Below are positions 1,853-51,700 of a DNA stretch of 64,000 nt, piece after piece. The stretch is from positions 9,486,001 through 9,550,000 of the forward strand of contig NC_091474.1 in assembly GCF_036971445.1 (NCBI RefSeq), given 5' to 3'. Both the position numbers and the translations under genes were made by a program. Each line of letters opens with the position of its first letter. Positions within the stretch are counted from its first letter, which is position 1. This DNA is from Narcine bancroftii. Taxonomy: Eukaryota. The notes below the pieces were generated by a model. That model ran no database searches. It saw nothing but the letters and a program-made list of their open reading frames with translations, and was not told the origin of the DNA.

Positions 1853-4169
1853 TAGACCCTCTGGGATCAGTTGAAGGCTACCATACTGCAATCCACTGAA
1901 GAGGTACTGGGCTTCTCCTCCAGGAAAAACAAGGACTGGTTTGACGAAAACAGCCAGGAAATCCAGGAGCTGCTGGCAAAGAAGCGAGCTGCCCACCAGG
2001 CTCACCTTACAAAGCCGTCCTGTCCAGAGAAGAAACAAGCCTTCCGTCGCGCATGCAGCCATCTTCAGCGCAAACTCCGGGAGATCCAAAATGAGTGGTG
2101 GACTAGCCTCGCCAAGCGAACCCAGCTCAGCGCGGACATTGGCGACTTCAGGGGTTTCTATGAGGCTCTAAAGGCTGTGTATGGCCCCTCACCCCGTCCA
2201 AAGTCCGCTGCGCAGCTCAGACGGCAAAGTCCTCCTCAGCGACAAGATCTCCATCCTCAACCAATGGTCAGAACACTTCCAATCTCTTTTCAGTGCCAAC
2301 CGCTCAGTCCAAGATTCCGCCCTGCTCCAGCTCCCTCAACAGCCCCTAAGGCTAGAGCTGGATGAGGTCCTCACCGAGGATGAGACATATAAGGCAATCA
2401 AACAACTGAAAAGTGGCAAAGCAGCAGGTATGGATGGAATCCCCCCAGAGGTCTGGAAGGCTGGCGGCAAAACTCTGCATGTCAAACTGCATGAGTTTTT
2501 CAAGCTTTGTTGGGACCAAGGAAAACTGCCTCAGGACCTTCGTGATGCCACCATCATCACCCTGTACAAAAACAAAGGCGAGAAATCAGACTGCTCAAAC
2601 TACAGGGGAATCACGCTGCTCTCCATTGCAGGCAAAATCTTCGCTAGGATTCTCCTAAATAGAATAATACCTAATGTCGCCGAGAATATTCTCCCAGAAT
2701 CACAGTGCGGCTTTCGCGCAAACAGAGGAACTACTGACATGGTCTTTGCCCTCAGACAGCTCCAAGAAAAGTGCAGAGAACAAAACAAAGGACTCTACAT
2801 CACCTTTGTTGACCTCACCAAAGCCTTCGACACCGTAAGCAGGAAAGGGCTTTGGCAAATACTAGAGCGCATCGGATGCCCCCCAAAGTTCCTCAACATG
2901 ATTATCCAACTGCACGAAAACCAACAAGGTCAGGTCAGATACAGCAATGAGCTCTCTGAACCCTTCTCCATTAACAATGGCGTGAAGCAAGGCTGTGTTC
3001 TCACACCAACCCTCTTTTCAATCTTCTTCAGCATTATGCTGAACCAAGCCATGAAAGACCTCAACAATGAAGACGCTGTTTACATCCGGTACCGCACGGA
3101 TGGCAGTCTCTTCAATCTGAGTCGCCTGCAAGCTCACACCAAGATACAAGAGAAACTTGTCCGTGAACTACTCTTTGCAGACGATGCCGCTTTAGTTGCC
3201 CATTCAGAGCCAGCTCTTCAGCGCTTGACGTACTGTTTTGCGGAAACTGCCAAAATGTTTGGCCTGGAAGTCAGCCTGAAGAAAACTGAGGTCCTCCATC
3301 AGCCAGCTCCCCACCACGACTACCAGCCCCCCCACATCTCCATCGGGCACACAAAACTCAAAACGGTCAACCAGTTTACCTATCTCGGCTGCACCATTTC
3401 ATCAGATGCAAGGATCGACAACGAGATAGACAACAGACTCGCCAAGGCAAAGAGCGCCTTTGGAAGACTACACAAAAGAGTCTGGAAAAACAACCAACTG
3501 AAAAACCTCACAAAGATAAGCGTATACAGAGCCGTTGTCATACCCACACTCCTGTTCGGCTCCGAATCATGGGTCCTCTACCGGCATCACCTACGGCTCC
3601 TAGAACGCTTCCACCAGCGTTGTCTCCGCTCCATCCTCAACATTCATTGGAGCGCTTTCATCCCTAACGTCGAAGTACTCGAGATGGCAGAGGTCGACAG
3701 CATCGAGTCCACGCTGCTGAAGATCCAGCTGCGCTGGGTGGGTCACGTCTCCAGAATGGAGGACCATCGCCTTCCCAAGATCGTGTTATATGGCGAGCTC
3801 TCCACTGGCCACCGTGACAGAGGTGCACCAAAGAAAAGGTACAAGGACTGCCTAAAGAAATCTCTTGGTGTCTGCCACATTGACCACCGCCAGTGGGCTG
3901 ATATCGCCTCAAACCGTGCATCTTGGCGCCTCACAGTTTGGCGGGCAGCAACCTCCTTTGAAGAAGAGCGCAGAGCCCACCTCACTGACAAAAGGCAAAG
4001 GAGGAAAAACCCAACACCCAACCCCAACCAACCAATTTTCCCCTGCAGCCGCTGCAACCGTGTCTGTCTGTCCCGCATCGGACTTGTCAGCCACAAACGA
4101 GCCTGCAGCTGACGTGGACATTTACCCCCTCCATAAATCTTCGTCTGCGAAGACAAGCCAAAGAAGAAG
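1853..4169 (+). mobile_element. RTE-clade LINE, 5'-truncated, young
   Basis: RT motifs NYRGITLLSIAGK, FVDLTKAFD, GVKQGCVL and LFADD, plus a C-terminal CCHC-type zinc finger (CSRCNRVCLSRIGLVSHKRAC). A frameshift near 2190 separates ORFs 1871 and 2181. (AAG)n tail. Confidence 0.95.
2181..4112 (+). CDS. RTE LINE reverse transcriptase ORF (partial, no endonuclease domain)
   Basis: 643-aa open frame with a complete RT domain and terminal zinc finger. The N-terminus is lost by truncation and frameshift. Confidence 0.85.
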   Translation: MAPHPVQSPLRSSDGKVLLSDKISILNQWSEHFQSLFSANRSVQDSALLQLPQQPLRLELDEVLTEDETYKAIKQLKSGKAAGMDGIPPEVWKAGGKTLHVKLHEFFKLCWDQGKLPQDLRDATIITLYKNKGEKSDCSNYRGITLLSIAGKIFARILLNRIIPNVAENILPESQCGFRANRGTTDMVFALRQLQEKCREQNKGLYITFVDLTKAFDTVSRKGLWQILERIGCPPKFLNMIIQLHENQQGQVRYSNELSEPFSINNGVKQGCVLTPTLFSIFFSIMLNQAMKDLNNEDAVYIRYRTDGSLFNLSRLQAHTKIQEKLVRELLFADDAALVAHSEPALQRLTYCFAETAKMFGLEVSLKKTEVLHQPAPHHDYQPPHISIGHTKLKTVNQFTYLGCTISSDARIDNEIDNRLAKAKSAFGRLHKRVWKNNQLKNLTKISVYRAVVIPTLLFGSESWVLYRHHLRLLERFHQRCLRSILNIHWSAFIPNVEVLEMAEVDSIESTLLKIQLRWVGHVSRMEDHRLPKIVLYGELSTGHRDRGAPKKRYKDCLKKSLGVCHIDHRQWADIASNRASWRLTVWRAATSFEEERRAHLTDKRQRRKNPTPNPNQPIFPCSRCNRVCLSRIGLVSHKRACS

Positions 4170-15328: not shown

Positions 15329-16093
15329 GTCCAACTGCAGTCGGCTCTGTACTGGCTTTAAACAGCCTGTTAAACAGCTGAAGTGGTTTATTTTAAAGTC
15401 CCATGACCATGGGGCTTGGCCCAAGAAGGTGGGCACAAGGGGTTGCAGACTCTGCAGAAGCAGGACACTAGAAAACAGGGAGACCCCTGATTTTGAGAAA
15501 AGGAAACAGAGGAGACAATCCATATGGCAGTGACCTTGGCAGCAGACCAGTGAGAAGGGCTCGGAGCCTGAAGAACACACATGAGCCAGGCTGTAGTGAC
15601 TCAAGACAAGGAACTTACAAAGAACTTGGGCTGCTAGTGACTGCAATCAAAGGACTCAGAGCAGGTTGGGAACTGCTGGAGACTGGCTGAAGGGGTACCA
15701 GCAACTGGAACCAGAATATGAGAGGGCACTGGAGGCCTCTGAGTGTGTCAGAGATGTGCATCTGGAGTTCGGGTTGCTGATGGTTTGGACTGGAGGCAAA
15801 GCCATGAACATTCAGTGACACTGGGGAATGGGGCAGAGGGTGTCTCCTTTTTGCTTCTCTGGCTCTAAGAAATGATGGGCAATTTTTGCTGATAACGAAT
15901 CTTTGTCAGCCTGCCAGATGTCTGAAGGAAATTCCATGCAATATCACATTTTCAATTTTATCACAGGACTACAAAATTAATATTGAATCCAAGTCCCTCA
16001 AAGCTGGAGAGGTAAACAGCCATTGTTTTTGGCTGAAAATTTGATTTGATAACAGCCCATAAAAATATATTGTTGACTTGGGCTTTTGCTTAC

Positions 16094-17045
16094 CTGTCCC
16101 ATCACGACTATTGTATGGCCATCCACCAACCGTAAGCATTGATGGCGTTGGGGAGCTCGCTCTGCTGTCCACTTCAACATGCTGTGTAATATGGCGCACT
16201 GTTTGCTTATTTTTGCGATTCTTTTTCCGGCCAGGCAACTGCCACACCTCAGGGACCTGATCAGAAAATGCACTCTGTGCTGAAGTGTTACTTTTTCCAA
16301 GGTGGGCTTCTCTCAATTCAGAACCTCCATAATGTGAGGGAGATATCTGTTCCTCCTTGACTCGAAATGAATTGTAACCAATGTCACTTGACCAGAGTGA
16401 TTGTGAAGAGATGTCATCATGACTGTCAGTTTTCTGCTCATGTTCCTCTTTGCTGTAGCTACTCCCACCATCATGACAACTTGCAATCGCTGAATCTCCA
16501 GAAGAATTTGCTGGACTTGTCCGTCGTCTTTCCAACCAAGGAGAATTACTCCTGCCCACTGCTACTGGTGTTACAATATCAATGCTGCTGCTTGAGGGGG
16601 CTCCCATATCATACTCCATAATGTCGTCTGACGGCTCAGTCTTTATACTGATATCTAAAGCTGCCTTGATAAAACTATGACATGCCTGAACTATGTCTGT
16701 CATCTGCAAATAGCTTGCAGCTGACATTACCTCAATGACATTCTTGCTTGTCAATGCTAGGTGCGCAGAGTACATAAAATCTATGATTACTTTGAAACCT
16801 TGTGCAGTGACGATGTCCAAATGAGTCACAGTAGCCTGATCTGAAGACATCTTCTGCACCTGACAGTACAAAGTCTTGAAGTAGCGGCTACTGCCAAGCA
16901 GGACATTTTTATGCGCCTTGAAGATTTTTCCCTCCACAATAATGCACACATCACAAAGGATGCCATGCTGTCGCTGTTCATTTAATTCCCTTAACAAGTG
17001 GCGGTAGTGTGATGGGATTTCCATATCATCTTTTCGATTGTCCAT
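16094..17045 (-). CDS. ZBTB46: ZBTB46 (zinc finger and BTB domain-containing 46), first coding exon: BTB domain and linker
   Basis: MDNRKDDMEIPSHYRHLLRELNEQRQHGILCDVCIIVEGKIFKAHKNVLLGSSRYFKTLYCQVQK...SPANSSGDSAIASCHDGGSSY closely matches vertebrate ZBTB46 as I recall it. Acceptor ttttcttcgctttaatag| places the exon start at 17073. Donor CAG|gtaagc lies at 16094/16093 (phase 1, 952 coding nt). Confidence 0.95.
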
Positions 17046-20000
17046 TGAAAGATATTGTTGTTGCTTTTGAATTCTATTAAAGCGAAGAAAAAAATCAGTT
17101 TCATAAATAAAAATATGGCTTTGCCTACAAGACATCTTCCTGATAATAGCATTCTATTCCAACATTTACAAAGTCAACTCATTGTTATTTAATGGTTCAG
17201 ATCATGGATAATCAAAGCAAAATAGGATATTTCATCACAAATAAAGACAGTGCTCAAAACAGACACAGTGTGTGCAAGCAGACAAAGTGTTACTATTCAG
17301 GTTATAGGCCTCATTTTTTTCTGCAAAGGGGTTGCTTAACCTACATTTTTCCTCTCTGATGTAGAATGCATCACATTATAACCAAGCAATGGAGCTTGCT
17401 AATTTTTTTTTTCCTTAAACTCCCATCATACCCCACATTAATATTTGTGAAGTCAAGGCGGGAAGTTGCAATTAGAAAACAACAGAATCCTTCAATAAAA
17501 TCCAAATACAGCTCAATTTGAAATATTTTTAGCATAAGTGGAATAAAATAACAAGTTAATGATTAGTTTTCTCCCAACATTTTAAAAGATTTCAAAGAAA
17601 TACATCTTAGGTTTCCTTCATTGTTCAATCACAGCAGATAAATGGTTTTTGTGAAATTAATCCATTTAGATCACTTTTTTTATTATACAGATTCTTTTCA
17701 CATGGAGATGAAATTTTAGAATTTTCTACCACCAGCAAAGAATGCTGAGCAATTTGATAAATTCAGCCTTGAAATTGCTTTCAAGACTAGGGGAGAAAGT
17801 GGAGTTGAACCCAGTGATCAGATTATTGTATGATAGAGCAGGCTCAACGTGGTGTATGGTCAACTTCTGCTTCCAATTTGTGCTCCAACTACATTATAGA
17901 AAAACACAGCTGTTTATATGATTATAATAATATTTCTATTTTATTGCACTTGCTTTCAATATCAATCACATTTTCTCTGAAATGACACAATAATAAAGCT
18001 TTGGCAATCTTTTAATTTTAATTGTCTCTGGGTATTTCTTACCATAACCATCAAGTGAATCAACCAAGTTGATTGCCAAACTCAAAAATCACAGACCTGA
18101 AACATCAATTATTTTTTTCCACAAATATTGCCCAATTTTGCTGCACGTGCCAGCATTTTCTCCCTGATTTCCAGCATGTTCAGTCCTCATGGACCCCCCC
18201 CCCGCCCCTTTCTTCATGATTGATCTCAACAACAAAATAACTGAAGATTAGGCCACTAGAACCGATCATGCTTGCTCCATTCCATAATCCAAAAGTTAAC
18301 TTTTGACCATTTCATCACAGTTCCAAAATCCTTTTATCACAGGTGGGTGCTTTAACCATATAACTGTTTACGGCGTGGAAACAGGCCATGTCTGCCCTTC
18401 AAATCCATGCCGATTCACTTGCCAATGCCCCGGGGCAGTTAGTCCCAACAGTGTTTACATAGGATGGCGGTCACTTCCGTGAGGCCTTGGCAGGCTGCAG
18501 GAGTCTTCGTGGAGTGCCCAGCGATGGGGGTCTGTGTGGCAGCTTTGGTGCTTTGGAAAAAAAAATCTATTCTTTCCATAGGCATAAATGTTTTTATGCT
18601 AAATCCATGATTCCCAGTTCAAGAAGTACTGGACTGAAGGAGCAGACCATCATCTATCCTTTAAACTGCCTCCAGAAATTTCAGACATTTTATTTGAACA
18701 CAGATTCTCTATTGTGTCCCAAAGAAATGGATCTCCATGTAAATGTACTTTATTTAACATGTTTGAATATGCTTGATTTTGTTCAATGATGATGAAATGT
18801 TTCCTTGTTGACACATCTTCCATACAAAAACCAGACATTCAATTAATAACTAATAATTTGCAATGATTATAATGTAATCTTATTTTGCTTACTGTCTTTC
18901 TTTCTCCCGCTGTCCTTCCCCTTCGTCAATGTAGTGCCAGTTTCTTCCCATTTTGTCCCCAGGATTGTTCACAATTTCCCAGTTGTTTGAAATGATGAGG
19001 AATCCTACCTAGAAGCAAATCATAAATGTTCCATTATTGTACAAGAACATAACTTTTAAAATGCTATTAGTGCCAAGAATTAATAATTTCAGCTGAGAGT
19101 TACTTTTCAAATTGTGTCTAAATTGATCATTGATTTTTTTTTGTGAATTCTTAAAAATAACTAACCATTATTTGTCACTTCTCATTTGTATGTTACTCTT
19201 TTCTCCTGCTCTGAACAGAGGACGATCATGATTGCTCAATAAAAAAAATAAGAATTATGAGAGAATAAACTAGGATAAACACATGCAAAACAGAAGAATC
19301 TAACGTTATTTACTGCTCGCATCTTCACAAAAGGAAACCTATCCCTCAATAAAAGTCTAATAAATACAAATAATGCTTTATTTACAATCAGATCTACTCT
19401 GCTTACAATGGACAACATTTGAAAAAAAAATAAAGATGCAAGAAAGTTTTACTTGTAAACCTTAAAAGTTTTCTGAAAAAAAAAATGACAAATTGTGGGG
19501 AAATTAAGGCGTAAAAACAAATCAAATGTGCTCCAAATTCAAAATCTTGGAATTTATGATTTTTAAAAAGATATTATTGGTCAGGCCAGTACTTAATCTC
19601 CATTCACAATTCTCCCAAAAGGAAACTGATGACAATTTCTTAAACCATCACAGTTTTTGCAGGGCAAGTACAGCACTGGTTGATAACATCTCGACCCAAT
19701 GACAATGAAAAAGTGTCGCAGCACAATGTCAAAGAAATCCAAGTAACAATGGTTATGACTGGCAACTTGCAGTTCATGGCTATGTGCAGAAAAAGGTGGT
19801 TTCAATGCACTTAACCTAATATAAAATTTGTTCACTAGTATAAATTCAGGTTCCTAACAATAAATTTGAAGGAACCGGTTAACTTGAAAGTAAACTCAAA
19901 ATGCATTTCAATTCACTTATCCAAAGGCAATAAATCAGTCCTACTCTCTAACTAATCTCATGTTACTTTATTTTCTCACAAATATGGCCACAAATTAATA

Positions 20001-20391: not shown

Positions 20392-20892
20392 AGATTATTC
20401 CTCTGACCATTGCAAGCTGGTCTTATTCTTTGAAAGCCATTTAGATAGTGAAAGGTCTCAATGGTGAGATTGGATGTTACTCAATGAAACTGCCAGTGGG
20501 AGAGCTGTGACAGGTAAGTATGGTTTTTGTGTGGAATTGAGCAGTGCGTGGAGGCAGTTTACCAAAGTCAGAGATTTCCTGGCTTTTCATTCTTAGACAT
20601 CATGTATGAGGTCAACTCCAAATTGAAATGCCAACATTGGTGAATCGCCTCCTGCCTCAGTGATGATCAATGAACATAATATTCATAGTGTAGTCTCACC
20701 ACAACAGCTTCAGCATCATCTGTTCTGACTTCCATTCCACTCTTTAACTGCATATCATCACATTCTATTTAGTCTGTTCATTCTTGTTCTGCAATAACTA
20801 GATGTTGAGCACCATATCAATTAAAACATTTTACAAATTGATCCTTTGCTAGCTTGACAAGAACACAAGAATCTTTGCACTTCCTTCTTTAT
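20392..20892. repeat. Source copy of a 501-bp local direct duplication
   Basis: Matches 21648-22148, with 2 mismatches seen. Confidence 0.95.
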
Positions 20893-21094: not shown

Positions 21095-21647
21095 AATCTC
21101 CCTCTGTGACTCCCTGAAACACTTCTCCCTTCCCACCAACCACCACCTTGGCACCTACAACCACAGGAGCTGTAGCACCTGTGCCCACACAATCTCCCTC
21201 ACCATTATTTTCCCCAAACAGTCCTCCCAAGTAAATCCAAAGGGGTCACCAACTGCTTCCAGTGCTCCCATTGTTGTATCCACTGAATTGGAGAGACTGG
21301 ATGCAGATTGGGAGATTCCTTCATTGAGTACCTCAGCTCCATCCACTGCAACAGAAGGGATCTCCCAGTGGTCATCCATTTCAATTCCCCACCCCATTCC
21401 CTTGCTGACACACCCATCCATGGGCTCATGCACTGCCAGATAAGATTACCTGCAAATTGGAGGAACAACAACTCAAATTCCATCTGGACACCCTCCAACC
21501 AGATAGCACAAACAGACTTCTCTGGTTTCTGTTAGGGCCAACCCTTCTCCCTCCCCCCTCCAATCTTACCCATACATCTCCTTCATCTAGCTTTGCGTCT
21601 TTCTCTTCCCTTTTCCCTGTCTCCTTTCCCCAAGCTCTGCTGCATTC
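21095..21647 (+). mobile_element. Penelope-like (GIY-YIG) element remnant, resuming at 22192-22362
   Basis: Remnants IGETGCRLGDSFIEYL, HFNSPPHS and KLEEQQLKFHL.TLQP, typical of PLE endonucleases. Confidence 0.7.
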
Positions 21648-22148
21648 AGATTATTCCTCTGACCATTGCAAGCTGGTCTTATTCTTTGAAAGCCATTTAG
21701 ATAGTGAAAGGTCTCAATGGTGAGATTGGATGTTACTCAATGAAACTGCCAGTGGGAGAGCTGAGACAGGTAAGTATGGTTTTTGTGTGGAATTGAGCAG
21801 TGCGTGGAGGCAGTTTACCAAAGTCAGAGATTTCCTGGCTTTTCATTCTTAGACATCATGTATGAGGTCAACTCCAAATTGAAATGCCAACATTGGTGAA
21901 TCGCCTCCTGCCTCAGTGATGATCAATGAACATAATATTCATAGTGTAGTCTCACCACAACAGCTTCAGCATCATCTGTTCTGACTTCCATTCCACTCTT
22001 TAACTGCATATCATCACATTCTATTTAGTCTGTTCATTCTTGTTCTGCAATAACTAGATGTTGAGCACCATATCAATTAAAACATTTTACAAATTGATCC
22101 TTTGCTAGCTTGACAAGAACACAAGCATCTTTGCACTTCCTTCTTTAT
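21648..22148. repeat. Inserted copy of 20392-20892
   Basis: Direct sequence match. It interrupts the Penelope-like element. Confidence 0.95.
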
Positions 22149-22168
22149 TAGGGTTAGGGTTAGGGTTA
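22148..22168 (+). repeat. Short interstitial telomeric repeat (TTAGGG)3TTA
   Basis: ttagggttagggttagggtta sits exactly at the end of the duplicated segment. Confidence 0.9.
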
Positions 22169-22369
22169 AGCATCAGGTAAAGCATTTATCCTTCTTCCAA
22201 TCAATTCTCACATTTCCTCTTTTCTGTCCTCTTATCGATATCCAATTACTACCTTTTGTCTGTTGGTCTGTACTCTTCCCCCTGCTCTTTCTTCCCTTCA
22301 TCCCATCATTTTAATTCAGGGGCCTGCCTGCTTTGTACTCATACTTTAAAGAAGGGCTCAGGCAACTTC

Positions 22370-23112
22370 AGCAAAGAGGAAGCACACAGAAGTGAGATAG
22401 ATCAGCCAGTTGAGTGGTGTCACAACAATAATCTTACATTCAACATTAGCAAAACTAAGGAATTAATTGTGGATTTCAGGAAGGGGAAAATCAGGAGAAC
22501 GTGAACCAATCCTCATCAAGGGGTCAACAGTGGAGAGGGTAAAGTACTTCAAATTTCTTGGTATGTCAACATCTCTGAAGATCTATCCTGGGGCCAATGC
22601 AATCATAAAGGCGGCTCACCAGCAGCTAGATTTCATTAGGAGCCTTGCTAATTTCTACAGGTGGAGAGCATTTTGACTGGTTGCATCTCTGTCTGGTATG
22701 AGATGCCAATGCACACAACAATATAAGACTACAGAGGGTTGCAATGTCAGCCAGTGCCATCGTGGGCATTAGTCTTCACTCCATTAAGATGTCTCAAGAA
22801 AGTAGCCTTAAAGTACCCTCACCATCAAGGCCATGCTCTTTTCTCACAGCTAGCATCAGGCAGGAAGTACAGGAGCCTGAAGATGCACACCCAATGTTAC
22901 CAAAACAACTTCTTCCCCTCCACCATCAGATTTCCGAGCAGACAATGAACCTATAGACATGACCTCACTTTTTTTTCCTCTTTTTTGCTCCATTTTTAAA
23001 TATTGTATTTATGGAACAGTAATTTATTGCAATTTTGCACCTGTAATGCACAATCCTGCTGCTGCAAAACAACAAATTTTGTAACACGTTCATGACAATA
23101 AACTCGATTCTG
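22370..23112 (+). mobile_element. Rex1/Babar-like LINE 3' fragment
   Basis: Remnants of WCHNNNLTFNISKTKELIVDFRK, VERVKYFKFLG and HALFSQLASGRKYRS. Ends in aataaactcgattctga. Confidence 0.75.
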
Positions 23113-25310
23113 ATGTACATCTACCTCCTGTGGACAATGCGAGACCTGCTAAGTTCCTCCAGCATTTGTGTTTTTATTTTCTGCTCATGGATAATCCGTT
23201 AATCTACTATATGCATTCCTGATTTCAAAGCAGACATCAGTACAACTCTCTCCTCCCCACACCCCACCCTCATTCTTAACCAATCACTACTACTTAATTT
23301 GCTAGCCAATATTTAATGTATACCTGTTTGAAAAGTTAGAAATCAAGAAATAACATACTAGCTTAAGGGGAAAAATTCTCTTCAAGGATGATGATGGCCA
23401 TGTAAATTGCAATGCCTTTGAGAATGTAATAAAGTAAATGATGTCCTAATAGAATGGGAAGATTTTGAAGAGAAAATCAATGGTCTAACTGGAACAATAG
23501 TGTTTTCAAATGTTTCAAGTTCATTAGTACATGAGTATGATATCACAAGTTTGGTAGAATAAAAGAAAAATTTTCATTAATGTTGTGTACTTGAGCAAGC
23601 AAAGATTTCTGCCCAAAATAAACAATGCAGTTCTACATCCAACTGGCTAGTTGGAACTGCTAAATGAATAAAATATCAAATGTGGACTTCAACATCATTT
23701 CTCACACTAATTCAAACCTCCAGTTTCATGAATTCCACACATTTCCTAAATCCAAAAGATAACTTGATGTTTAATATAAAATGTCACAACAAATCAGAGC
23801 ATGCAGGATGAAGATATTTGACAAGAGTTAGCACCAAAATTTACAACACCTCATATTAATTTCACGTTACTTGCATCCTCTTCTCAGCACTATAAAGATA
23901 TCAAGAATTGAACAGGACATGTGGAATGGGTAGCTATGTGAAGCTAATCACAAAGTACAAGACCAGACATGATCTTAACGGATGATGGCCTCGTGCTTCT
24001 TTCTCAATGCCTCCATTGTTCCATAGGCAAGTGTTCCTTTACAAGCTGATAGACAGGGCTTCCTATAATTTGCCCAGAAAAACAGATCAACAAGCCTTTC
24101 CCACACCCCCACCCAACAAGCAGGGAGGAGAGTTATCTTATCCTCAATTAAAGCAAATATGTCCAACCCTTGATGCTACACAATATTGCATCAGGTAAAG
24201 CATTTATCCACTGAGTTACCGGGACATGTACCTTTAACAAAATATTTTGTAGATTACAGCAAGAATCTAAAGAGAACTGGTTAAGGCATACATCAAACCA
24301 AAAGAATAGTTTTCAGCTAAAATAAAAGAGCTTCATCATCTGCCAGTAATTCAGAACCTCTGAAATGTAGATCATGATGAATTAATCCCAAATTAATTCT
24401 GTAAAATCCACAATGTTATCACAACTTCTGAAAATACTATATCAGAAGCTATATGCACAGCAAAGTTTGAAGCCTAAAATGGTCAGTGCCATTTTTGTAT
24501 TAAATTGTACTTGAGTATAAAAGTATGAGAGTTTATAAATCCTATATTTAAAAAAAGCAACATTACTTCATGCTTTTTAGTTATAATTGCCTTTGGGAAT
24601 GAGATGACGTGAGGAAAAAGAGATGAAAGAAACAGAAAGGAAAAAAGAGACCAGACTTATCCTTTTAAGTAAAAAAAATGGTAACATGTTAAATGTAAAG
24701 TGAATATCAATAGAATGAGGCTACGTTTCAGTATTTTTTTTTTTTAAAAACCTCTTCACAGTACTGTTGAAATAACAATCTGGTGTACACCATTTTGGCT
24801 TGTGTTCAACAGTCACTTTTTGCAGGGTTTTGAAATATTCCTAGTGCATCGAGATCCCTGTATGAACCACTAACTCAAAAAGTGGAGGGGAAAAGGAGTT
24901 CAACAAGGATCAAACTAGGAAAAACTTGTGCTTTAGGTTCAAATCAATTAATTGTTATTAAATATCATCTTTTAGAGAAAATATCAGAAATTGATCAAAT
25001 ATATCTGCTAAAATGTGCACTGGCTTAACAAGAATTTGTAAAGTGATTCAAGTTATATTTGCTGGTTCCAACCACCTGAAATGTTCAATGTACAGAAAGT
25101 ACACAAAAACCTATCAACCTTGTTATACAGTATACTTTCCTGAAGTAACCGAACAGTTTAGTATAACCTATTACAATATTTCAATACTATGCAAATATTA
25201 AGTTGTTGTAAAAATTGGGATTTTCAACTTTGTAGCTATAGATCTAGCTTCACATTCGGTTTATCATACAAAAATGAAAACCTGTTAAGAAGATGGTCAG
25301 AACAGCATGA

Positions 25311-47326: not shown

Positions 47327-47556
47327 TTTGCGAGACCCTGCTGTGCTCGGGAGTTATCGCCCAGCCTGCACCGAGAGGCTAAAAAAGGAAAGGCAAAAAA
47401 GATAGGCACCAAGGACAAGATGAGACACCATGGCAAGATGGCAGTGATGACTACCTGGAGAACTGACGACTCGTTTGACACTTCTTCCTCAGAGAGTGTA
47501 AGCGGAACAACTAGTGACGAGGCGAGCACCTGCGGGACGTCGCAGCTGCATGGTCC
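47327..47556 (+). repeat. Isolated 230-bp copy of the Gypsy gag-protease linker (49039-49268)
   Basis: Direct match with 2 mismatches seen. Confidence 0.93.
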
Positions 47557-48799: not shown

Positions 48800-51700
48800 A
48801 AAGTCCCTCAGAGTAGCAATGCAGAGTGCTAAAGTGCTAGGGGACAAGGTGGGTCAAAGTGCTGAAGCTACTCCATCAAAGTCTGCTTCCCGCGATGATG
48901 ACCCACTGCTGAGCGTACCAACCAAGCAGCCGCGAAGGAATCGCTTCAGGAAGTGCTACTTCTGTGGGCAGACACTGCATTCGTGCACACTGTGCCCTGC
49001 CCAACGAGCTGTCAGTGGCATGTGTAGAAAGGGAGCATTTTGCGAGACCCTGCTGTGCTCGGGAGTTATCGCCCAGCCTGCACCGAGAGGCTAAAAAAGG
49101 AAAGGCAAAAAAGATAGGCACCAAGGACAAGATGAGACACCATGGCAAGATGGCAGTGATGACTACCTGGAGAACCGACGACTCGTTTGACACTTCTTCC
49201 TCAGAGACTGTAAGCGGAACAACTAGTGACGAGGCGAGCACCTGCGGGACGTCGCAGCTGCATGGTCCCATCCTGGCATCTATCACCCTCAATCAAGACA
49301 AACCCCATGGGCTGAAACATTGCCATGGGAAAGCTGTTGACTGTTTATTTGATTCTGGGAGTGCTGACAGCTATATCCACCCAGTGACAGCAAACTCTTT
49401 GCGGATTAAACTGTACCCTTTAAAGTGCAGAATTTCTATGGCATGTTACGGATTCAAGAAAGAAATTGCAAACTGCTGTAGAGTAATGTTAAATGTACAA
49501 GGAACCATGACCTTGCCTCGCCCAGTGTGTAGTTAACAAGGAACCAAGAATCGAGTACTGCCCGATTTATGCGCTCAGATGTTGTTGGGGTTAGATTTCC
49601 AATGCCAAATGAAGAGCATAGTACTGGCATTTAATGGGCCACTACTTTCAATTGAGACAATTTGTGGGCTATCAACTCTTAAAATTAAACCGCCACACCT
49701 TTTTGCCAATTTAACCCCAGACTGTAAACTTATAGCCACAAAAAATAGACACTATTGTAAAGCGGATAGAGAATATATTAAGAACAATTGAACCAAGCTC
49801 AAACCCTTGGCGTGCCCAAGTTGTCATTGCCAAAAATGGGGAAAAATTGGATGGTTGTAAACTATAGCCAGACTGTGAACAGATTTACTCAGTTAGATGC
49901 ATATTCCCTACCTCGCATCTTTGACATGATGAATCAAATTGCCCAATACAAAATATGCTCCACAATAGATTTAAAGTCAGCCTACCGTTAAGTACCTGTA
50001 TTCAAAAAGGAAAGACAGTTTGAAGCAAATGGTAGGCTGTATCAGTTTAGAAGAGTTCTGTTTGGCATTACCAGTGGAGTATCTGTTTTCCAGAGGGAAA
50101 TGGATAGGTTGATGGACACACATGACTTACAGACCTCCTTTCCCTACTTGGACAATGTCACCATATGTTGTAAAACCCTGGAGGATCATGATTGTGACTT
50201 GAATAAATTCCTTCAGATGGCCAAAGATCTAAACTTAACCTTTAACAAAGACAAGTGTGTGTATCACACGAAGCGCCTGGCTATATTGGGCTATGTTATC
50301 AAAAGGGGTGAAATCAGCCCCAACCCTGAAAGAATGAGTCCTCTCATGGAACTGCCTCCTCCAACCACAAAGAAGTCTCTCAAACGCTGTCTAGGCTTCT
50401 TCTCTTATTATGCACAGTGGGTGCCTAACTACGCAGACAAGGCCCGACCACTTTTTAAAACTTCTGTTTTTCGATGTCAGAGGAACCCCACAAAGCTTTT
50501 GAGAACATCAAATTAGACATTGCCAAAGCTTCAATGTCTCCTATTGACGAGGATTTGCCCTTCCAAGATGCCTCTGATTGTCCTCTCGCTGCCATACTAG
50601 ACTAAGCTGGTAGACCTGTAGTCTTTTCTCTCACAGACATTACAAGGGCAGGAACTGAGGCATTCCTCCAGTGAAAAAAAAGGATAGGCTATAATTCGTT
50701 ACTGGAGACACTATTTAGCAGGGAAAAGATTCACATTGCTGACAGGTCAGAAGTTAGTAGCTTACATGTTCAACACAAAATTAAAAATGATAAAATCACA
50801 CACTGGAGATCAAACTCTCTACATAATTATGATATCCTCTACCACCCAGGGAAGCTGAACAATCCTCCTGACACTCTATCTCACACGACTTGCGCGAGCA
50901 ATACAATCAGATCGCTTGAAAGAACTTCATGATGTTACGAGAATGTATCATTATGTGAAGTCTTTCAACTTGCTGTATTTGCTCGAAGATGTAAGGCAAA
51001 TGACTAAGGAATGTGTAGTCTGGGCAGAGTGCAAACCACAGTTCTATAAGCCTTCCAAGGCCAACCTTATTAAATCCACCAGACCTTTTGAGCGCCTCAA
51101 TGTCGATTTCAAAGAACCACTACCATCTAATAATAAAAATGACTACTTCCTTGACATTATAGACAAATTCTCATGTTTTCCTTTCGCTGTTCCCTGTGCC
51201 GATGTGTCAGCTTCAACAGTCATTTGCTCCCTTGATAAAATCTTCAGCATTTTTTGGTTATCCTGACTTTATTCATAGTGATAGAGGATCTGCCTTTATG
51301 AGCACTGAGTTAAGACAAGCCCTTCTGGCAAAAGGTATTGCTACTAGCCATACCACTATTTATAATCCATGTGGTAATGGGCAAGTGGAGCGGAATAATG
51401 CCACTATTTGGAAAACTATCACTCTTGCACTGAAATCTAAAGGTTACCCCACTAGCCGCTGGCAATATGTATTGCCAGGAGTGCTACACTCAATTTGCTC
51501 CTTACTATGCACAGCTACTAACGAAAGCCCCCACCAACATATTTTTACTTTTTCCAGAAAATCAAAAACTGGGTTGACTTTGCCAGCCTGGCTATCTAAA
51601 TTGGGACAGGTTTTGCTGAGAAAACACGCTAGACACAGTAAATCTGATCCACTCGTGGAAAGAGTGCAGCTACTCCATGCAAATCCAAGCTATGCTTATA

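Follow-up and report, generated by a model that had tools for sequence, protein, structure and literature searches.

The insert at 21648-22191 of the window (the whole stretch of DNA analysed here, 64 kb long) is, with a probability of about 0.75, what remains of one germline double-strand break that was patched by local copying, with a middle part likely written by telomerase. It comprises 544 nt in three abutting pieces with no element sequence between them, and it interrupts a repeat within a ZBTB46-like gene on the minus strand, the host gene named in the original prediction; relative to the first coding exon the site is upstream, on the side of a CpG-rich stretch at 38-39 kb. The features concerned are as follows, in window coordinates.

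15969..17153, minus strand: ZBTB46-like BTB coding exon with its ATG at 17045; the intron upstream of it holds the insertion
20392..20892, plus strand: donor 1, unique intronic DNA, template for the 501-nt copy, 1256 nt upstream
21241..21647, plus strand: left part of the host repeat, a decayed GIY-YIG-like endonuclease end and a pyrimidine-rich tail; may begin near 21098
21648..22148, plus strand: copy of donor 1, 501 nt, direct orientation, 2 mismatches
22148..22169, plus strand: short interstitial telomeric tract that reads (TTAGGG)3TTA and then A; at either end it fits a DNA copy of the template region of the telomerase RNA (TERC)
22170..22191, plus strand: copy of donor 2, 22 nt, exact, direct orientation
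22192..22363, plus strand: host repeat resumes, with ~5-20 nt of the element missing at the site and no target-site duplication
24188..24209, plus strand: donor 2, 2018 nt downstream, 22-nt exact match
24279..24289, plus strand: candidate hidden third template, an 11-mer equal to the joint 22164-22173 plus one extra G

The three pieces had been recognised in the original prediction. Alignment confirmed the coordinates of the copy of 20392-20892 at 21648-22148, whose two mismatches fall at donor positions 20508 and 20870 (501 nt compared); in the whole 3.33-Gb genome the 501-mer has only two matches, the copy and donor 1. The predicted (TTAGGG)3 at 22148-22168 is present and extends as (TTAGGG)3TTA, that is, 3.5 repeats of TTAGGG, with its first T common to the 501-nt copy; it is the sole TTAGGGTTAGGG tract in the 64-kb window, and shuffled versions of the window contained 0.25 such tracts on average, with none of 100 shuffles reaching two, and the tract itself surpassed every one of the 100. 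The following A22169 is a single base that directly matches neither of its neighbours. Exact matching upheld the identity of 22170-22191 with 24188-24209, the only two places in the genome where this 22-mer occurs; both donors are unique and lie no more than 2.1 kb from the insert. At the joint between the telomeric tract and the 22-mer no direct microhomology was found; the 11-mer at 24279-24289, which follows donor 2 at a distance of ~70 nt, might have served as a hidden site of priming, a match noticed post hoc whose chance within 100 nt is ~0.002-0.012 before multiple testing. Since the copy diverges from donor 1 by 0.4% (95% interval 0.05-1.4%) and the best paralogues of the host repeat are 74-85% identical to the window copy, the insert is much younger than the repeat that hosts it.

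The host repeat is old and very abundant, and a GIY-YIG-like motif can be made out in its broken reading frames. That an element is interrupted by the insert and then resumes, as had been claimed, is borne out by paralogous copies, in which the host repeat runs on across the insertion site; the family name given with this claim, Penelope-like, is plausible from the sequence, with a Pfam match that stays sub-threshold. The window piece of the repeat had no match in Pfam, and one of three host-repeat paralogues matched Pfam GIY-YIG below the cut-off (E = 0.028); Atlas matches of the host repeat (0.97) were to clusters with 12-15% GIY-YIG. Penelope-like is a presumptive name that goes by the motif; the copy is a 3' fragment. 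The tail of the host repeat is split by a fragment at 22364-23121, which we assume to be LINE-like, and resumes at 23122-23178. Far to the left, the window also contains an open non-LTR reverse-transcriptase frame of 646 aa at 2172-4112, presumably RTE-like, with 3' fragments of 95-96% identity elsewhere in the window.

The paralogues also define what was lost and shared at the insertion site. In 19 of 29 scorable paralogues the spacer between the two anchors measures 13-32 nt (median 22), of which the window keeps 7; hence ~5-20 nt were lost and no target-site duplication was formed. The first base of the insert, A, is also the next base of the element in 19/19 paralogues (AGA in 3/19), and its final CC matches the element in 12/19 (ATCC at that offset in 0/19), so that the last CC of the 22-nt copy is likely to be common to the element; these microhomologies, and the size of the deletion, are judged from paralogues only, at 75-85% identity. 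No poly(A) was found at the insert. The possibility that the 22-mer or TTAGGG belonged to the element was ruled out; the original prediction had named it as a refuting condition. The 22-mer has two sites in the genome, and in 0 of the 58 paralogue loci fetched does a TTAGGG dimer form a common component of the element. One of these 58 loci, L045, has an unrelated (CCCTAA)2 junction and represents the one other case that came up when a hotspot of telomeric inserts at this position of the element was considered; its (CCCTAA)2 (oriented ~1440-1500) sits at an inversion junction, at the motif that also marks the end of the window insert.

The TERC gene of this genome was located as the one match among 30 scored of 6974 candidates.

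G000:C21:109885195-109885666, minus strand: TERC (L123), Rfam RF00024, 154 bits

Its template region is unusual, with UUUAACCCUAAU vs. CUAACCCUAAU in the Rfam consensus; a DNA copy of this RNA reads AAACCGCATA-TTAGGGTTA-AAGGG, which gives the flank form GCATA. The last bases of the 501-nt copy, TAT, match TERC by 3 nt and a plain telomere repeat by 1 nt; the three bases correspond to a match to the TERC template plus one base beyond the template. At the opposite end of the tract, the extra A22169 matches the unusual 5' edge of TERC (UUUAACCC; UUU); since A is not enriched after clean tract ends (14/34, p = 0.36), this base is compatible with the TERC 5' edge and not diagnostic, and its use as proof of template read-through was dropped. 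Between 21501 and 22300 of the window no TERC match of at least 14 nt was found, i.e., no distal TERC fragment at the locus. The predicted telomerase origin of the tract is supported by the TERC sequence of this very genome and by the genome-wide flank pattern described below; the match at the site itself covers only 3 nt, the genome-wide pattern is strong, and together they make it likely that telomerase wrote the window tract. The unusual template region may also explain the TTAAGGG variant repeats, the main variant among the loci compared (28 in 8/60 loci; TTACGGG 0, TTATGGG 0). A telomeric tract of more than 1225 nt, located ~1 Mb into the contig and headed by the flank of present TERC (L124; G000:C1, ~1026390 and below), contains no TTAAGGG in 1225 nt and is possibly a healed end or a fusion.

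The exact form of the window tract, with no G before or after, was found at 53 sites in the genome (one duplicated locus pair being counted twice) and at none for the reversed-pattern control. After 11 of the 53 sites with telomere-like sequence just upstream had been set aside, the base preceding the tract, for which the search pattern itself excluded G, was A in 36 of the 42 clean sites (expected 37%, p = 1e-10); the next base out was C in 21/36, and the one beyond it A in 18/25. This bias follows the sequence just outside the TERC template. Genome-wide, GCA-N-ATTAGGGTTAG occurs with C at 171 sites, T at 45, A at 6 and G at 2; as 25 of the T-form (GCATA) sites are dispersed and 20 lie in tandem arrays or small contigs, the imprint amounts to 171 GCACA and 25 dispersed GCATA sites vs. 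8 sites with control bases. From the 171 C-form sites counted, 100 were listed and 30 inspected, and these had unrelated flanks save for one pair; loci L093-L153 and L214-L233 belong to the ~200 dispersed TERC-flank inserts. The longer form AACCGCA-N-ATTAGGG occurs 15 times with C, 11 times with T (including the TERC gene), once with G and once as the control. Paralogues were present among the fetched DNA for 18 of 62 TERC-flank sites; at all 17 non-telomeric sites the full flank was absent from the empty paralogues, with only its first few bases in common, which indicates that the TERC flank was written in together with the insert.

The present TERC gives GCATA, one base different from the commoner scar form GCACA. 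It appears reasonably probable that the GCACA form records an older TERC allele, a reading that is preferred because the telomere-type arrays seen carry the T form; the alternatives are editing of the RNA, an allele missing from the assembly, or partial decay of C to T. No further TERC copy carrying the C form was found, either among the 30 scored of 6974 candidates or in the loci compared for the longer flank form and for tract length. The idea that GCATA tracts are longer, and thus younger, than GCACA tracts was abandoned: tract lengths do not separate the two forms (23 vs. 39 sites, Mann-Whitney p = 0.64, not significant), and tracts of at least 30 nt account for 5/23 GCATA vs. 2/39 GCACA sites (Fisher p = 0.09). 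Two arrays were seen in their own right. Seven tandem units of ~44 bp lie inside a telomere-variant array (L234 1490-1800; G000:C132 ~123640-123950), each with a TERC-flank copy of ~19 nt before TTAGGG, and the units show a 32-nt, 97% match to the present TERC; a GCATA-form array with a 16-bp period occupies C28:9032-9158.

The proposed enrichment of short TTAGGG tracts at local duplications did not materialise: local copies were found beside the tract at 3 of 59 other loci, vs. 2.4% of 12,000 control positions (p = 0.17), in a set of 60 loci composed of the 53 exact-form sites and 7 hand-picked GCATA sites. One of the three, L209, is merely a neighbouring repeat copy, and the other two are tandem-type duplications: at L202 the telomere tract re-annealed to upstream DNA through GGTT, with a 130-bp duplication as the result, and at L169 a 93-bp duplication surrounds the telomeric insert; in both, the bases at the 5' joint are in TERC register, and the 3' joint shows telomere microhomology. 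Copies on both sides of the tract were seen at the window site only (1/60 loci). Short head-to-head tracts in which TTAGGG is directly followed by CCCTAA repeats occur at L170, L173 and L094, suggesting telomerase extension of both broken ends. The window contains a second local direct duplication (47327-47556 and 49039-49268, 230 bp, 99.1%, 1.7 kb apart), which could be another repair-mediated duplication.

From the abutting foreign pieces, the unique nearby donors, and the lack of target-site duplication and poly(A), we infer a single repair event, with steps and enzymes in the following order. The left 3' end would have annealed 1.26 kb upstream through 1-3 nt of microhomology and been extended by a 501-nt copy; once released, this end in TAT would pair with TERC at the 3' edge of the template and one base beyond, and telomerase would add 3.5 repeats, possibly with one extra A from the UUU at the TERC 5' edge. 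The template for the 22 nt would lie 2 kb downstream and be copied by the right end, primed on ~2 nt, or else by the same strand; the ends would finally be joined with a loss of ~5-20 nt. Two-ended repair, in which each broken end copies its own arm, and serial copying by a single strand fit equally well; the telomere/22-mer joint, being free of direct microhomology, favours two ends joined bluntly. The original prediction of one event switching between templates is thereby retained as regards the repair scar and the local templating of both copies, whereas serial switching of a single strand is matched by the two-ended version. Against this reading as a whole count the restriction to one sample, the mere 3 nt of the TERC match at the site, the lack of enrichment of A after clean tract ends and of TTAGGG inserts next to local copies, the same microhomology-free joint, and the GTTAGGG in the element at 21531-21537, ~110 nt upstream of the break.

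It is unlikely that the pieces arrived in successive events, i.e., that a telomeric insert came first and that the 501-nt or the 22-nt copy was taken up when this insert, or DNA next to it, broke later. This genome has many short telomeric inserts, as the 53 sites of the exact form attest, and at L169 a second telomeric insert has re-used an older one 112 nt away; yet the window tract follows on from the TAT of the donor itself, in register with TERC, as if it had been primed on the new copy, and all three pieces are near-perfect, which is consistent with one age.

Distinctly unlikely is a patch made of RNA copies throughout, in which one top-strand 3' end would have jumped from nascent ZBTB46 pre-mRNA to TERC and back to pre-mRNA; RNA-derived patches at breaks are described in the accessible part of PMC5110952. 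With a minus-strand gene, the two intronic copies, which read on the plus strand, are oriented as cDNA would be, although direct orientation is equally expected from DNA copying; the TERC evidence points to an RNA source for the middle piece, but no splice junction or poly(A) marks the insert as RNA, and its size and distances match DNA-templated duplications. In vivo, TERT is not known to reverse-transcribe other RNAs over hundreds of bases, and this counts further against an all-RNA patch.

That the TTAGGG tract was not made by telomerase, and represents captured or copied telomeric DNA or slippage on the GTTAGGG at 21531-21537, is highly improbable. The window holds 18 TTAGGG hexamers (both strands counted), one of them ~110 nt left of the break, and telomere insertion through microhomology, with no part played by telomerase, has been proposed for ALT tumours (10.1101/157560); telomeric DNA, however, predicts a G before TTAGGG, and the base is A here and in 36/42 clean sites of a search whose pattern excluded G, whereas slippage would need three 1-nt realignments. 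Genome-wide, this explanation is weakened by the GCACA and GCATA counts and by the empty paralogues, since the non-repeat TERC flank, found at ~200 sites and written in according to the paralogues, would not be supplied by plain telomeric DNA.

The chance of an assembly artefact, by false duplication or a chimeric join, is negligible: the reads come from a single sample only, but independent de Bruijn contigs hold both junctions, with a depth equal to that of the flanks, and show 2x depth over the duplicated segment, and the two copies differ at 2 sites. These contigs are Logan contigs from four public runs, all of one sample, and they carry the junctions as predicted. A contig of 175-185 nt spans the right-hand junctions (22096-22270/80), and a 75-nt contig spans the left junction with 45 + 30 letters, one short of the 31-letter bridging rule. 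Depth in this one sample is 0.87-1.14x flank at both junctions and 1.95-2.0x flank over the duplicated segment, which argues against misassembly and for homozygosity. The insert is real and apparently homozygous; the sample is probably the assembled individual, and so lends no independent population support. The empty allele was not seen in the contigs of the four runs, and joints in them that resemble it are most likely paralogous repeats.

The window locus suggests that a strand just made during repair is open to telomerase while the repair is still under way, and that such a break may nevertheless end up closed instead of capped. The genome-wide TERC imprint matters more than this single locus. 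The origin of short interstitial telomeric sequences (short ITS), by telomerase or from captured telomeric DNA, has been debated on the strength of 1-4 bases in register, which either route can give; the TERC imprint makes this question directly testable, and the same TERC-flank test is applicable to any assembled vertebrate genome. If the older-allele reading of GCACA is true, the difference between the two forms sorts scars into older and younger strata and exposes a past change in TERC; germ-line telomerase would then often have primed outside its template, and hundreds of scars would form a fossil record of an earlier TERC.

In the features compared, both copies fit repair-mediated duplications, including two-donor chimeras; a two-donor copy falls into an already published class. 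The accessible part of that study gives a distance peak of ~1.2 kb, a maximum of 619 bp and 20 two-donor chimeras (PMC2671141), and its chimeric model lets each broken end copy its own arm before joining (Pace 2009; PMC2671141). As in these duplications, a transposon is interrupted by unique nearby sequence, with host halves that are contiguous within ~30 nt in paralogues; each piece has a single donor within 5 kb and more than 50 bp off (1256 and 2018 nt here); the copy is shorter than 619 bp, the two donors here being 3.3 kb apart; and the site combines deletion and filler, lack of poly(A), and microhomologies of 1-3 nt on the left and ~2 nt on the right, as judged from paralogues, where the class has 2-9 nt. 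Unlike in these duplications, the filler is of telomerase type (the main text of PMC2671141 mentions TTAGGG 0 times), and the 22-nt second copy is below their 50-bp cut-off.

Short ITS, in the accessible parts of the relevant papers, are one-step insertions of a few exact repeats with deletion, added sequence or complex duplications, and the bases at the break are in register; in mouse, 8/14 TERC-ITS loci have template-adjacent TERC bases (PMC2246262, PMC7215372, PMC8537989). The window tract shares with telomerase-inserted short ITS its exact TTAGGG repeats, absent from the pre-insertion sequence as seen in paralogues, and the priming-end bases in TERC register, which number only 3 nt here; it differs in that the added flanking sequence is traced to unique local donors on both sides, and in that the priming end would itself have been newly copied DNA. 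Since TERC-ITS contain a distal TERC fragment of 25-98 nt (PMC8537989, accessible part) and none of at least 14 nt matched here, the window insert is not a TERC-ITS; unlike in the TERC-ITS papers, the template-adjacent imprint extends to ~200 dispersed sites, in two forms that differ by one base.

Class 2 templated sequence insertions, among which the accessible text of PMC5110952 includes three experimental inserts with telomere repeats, likewise patch a break without target-site duplication or poly(A); their donors, in contrast, are distant and argued to be RNA, whereas the donors here lie within 2.1 kb (PMC5110952). For telomerase at induced breaks in human cells, a short product without shelterin was predicted to be end-joined into an interstitial insert (10.1101/2022.10.31.514589); that system is experimental, with a clean Cas9 end, and its accessible text describes no flanking templated copies. 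In open-licence main text, no report was found in which telomeric filler separates copies from two local donors, or in which a TERC-flank imprint occurs in two forms across a genome. Without evident function, the window insert joins two known scar types, the repair-mediated duplication from local donors and the telomerase-inserted short ITS.
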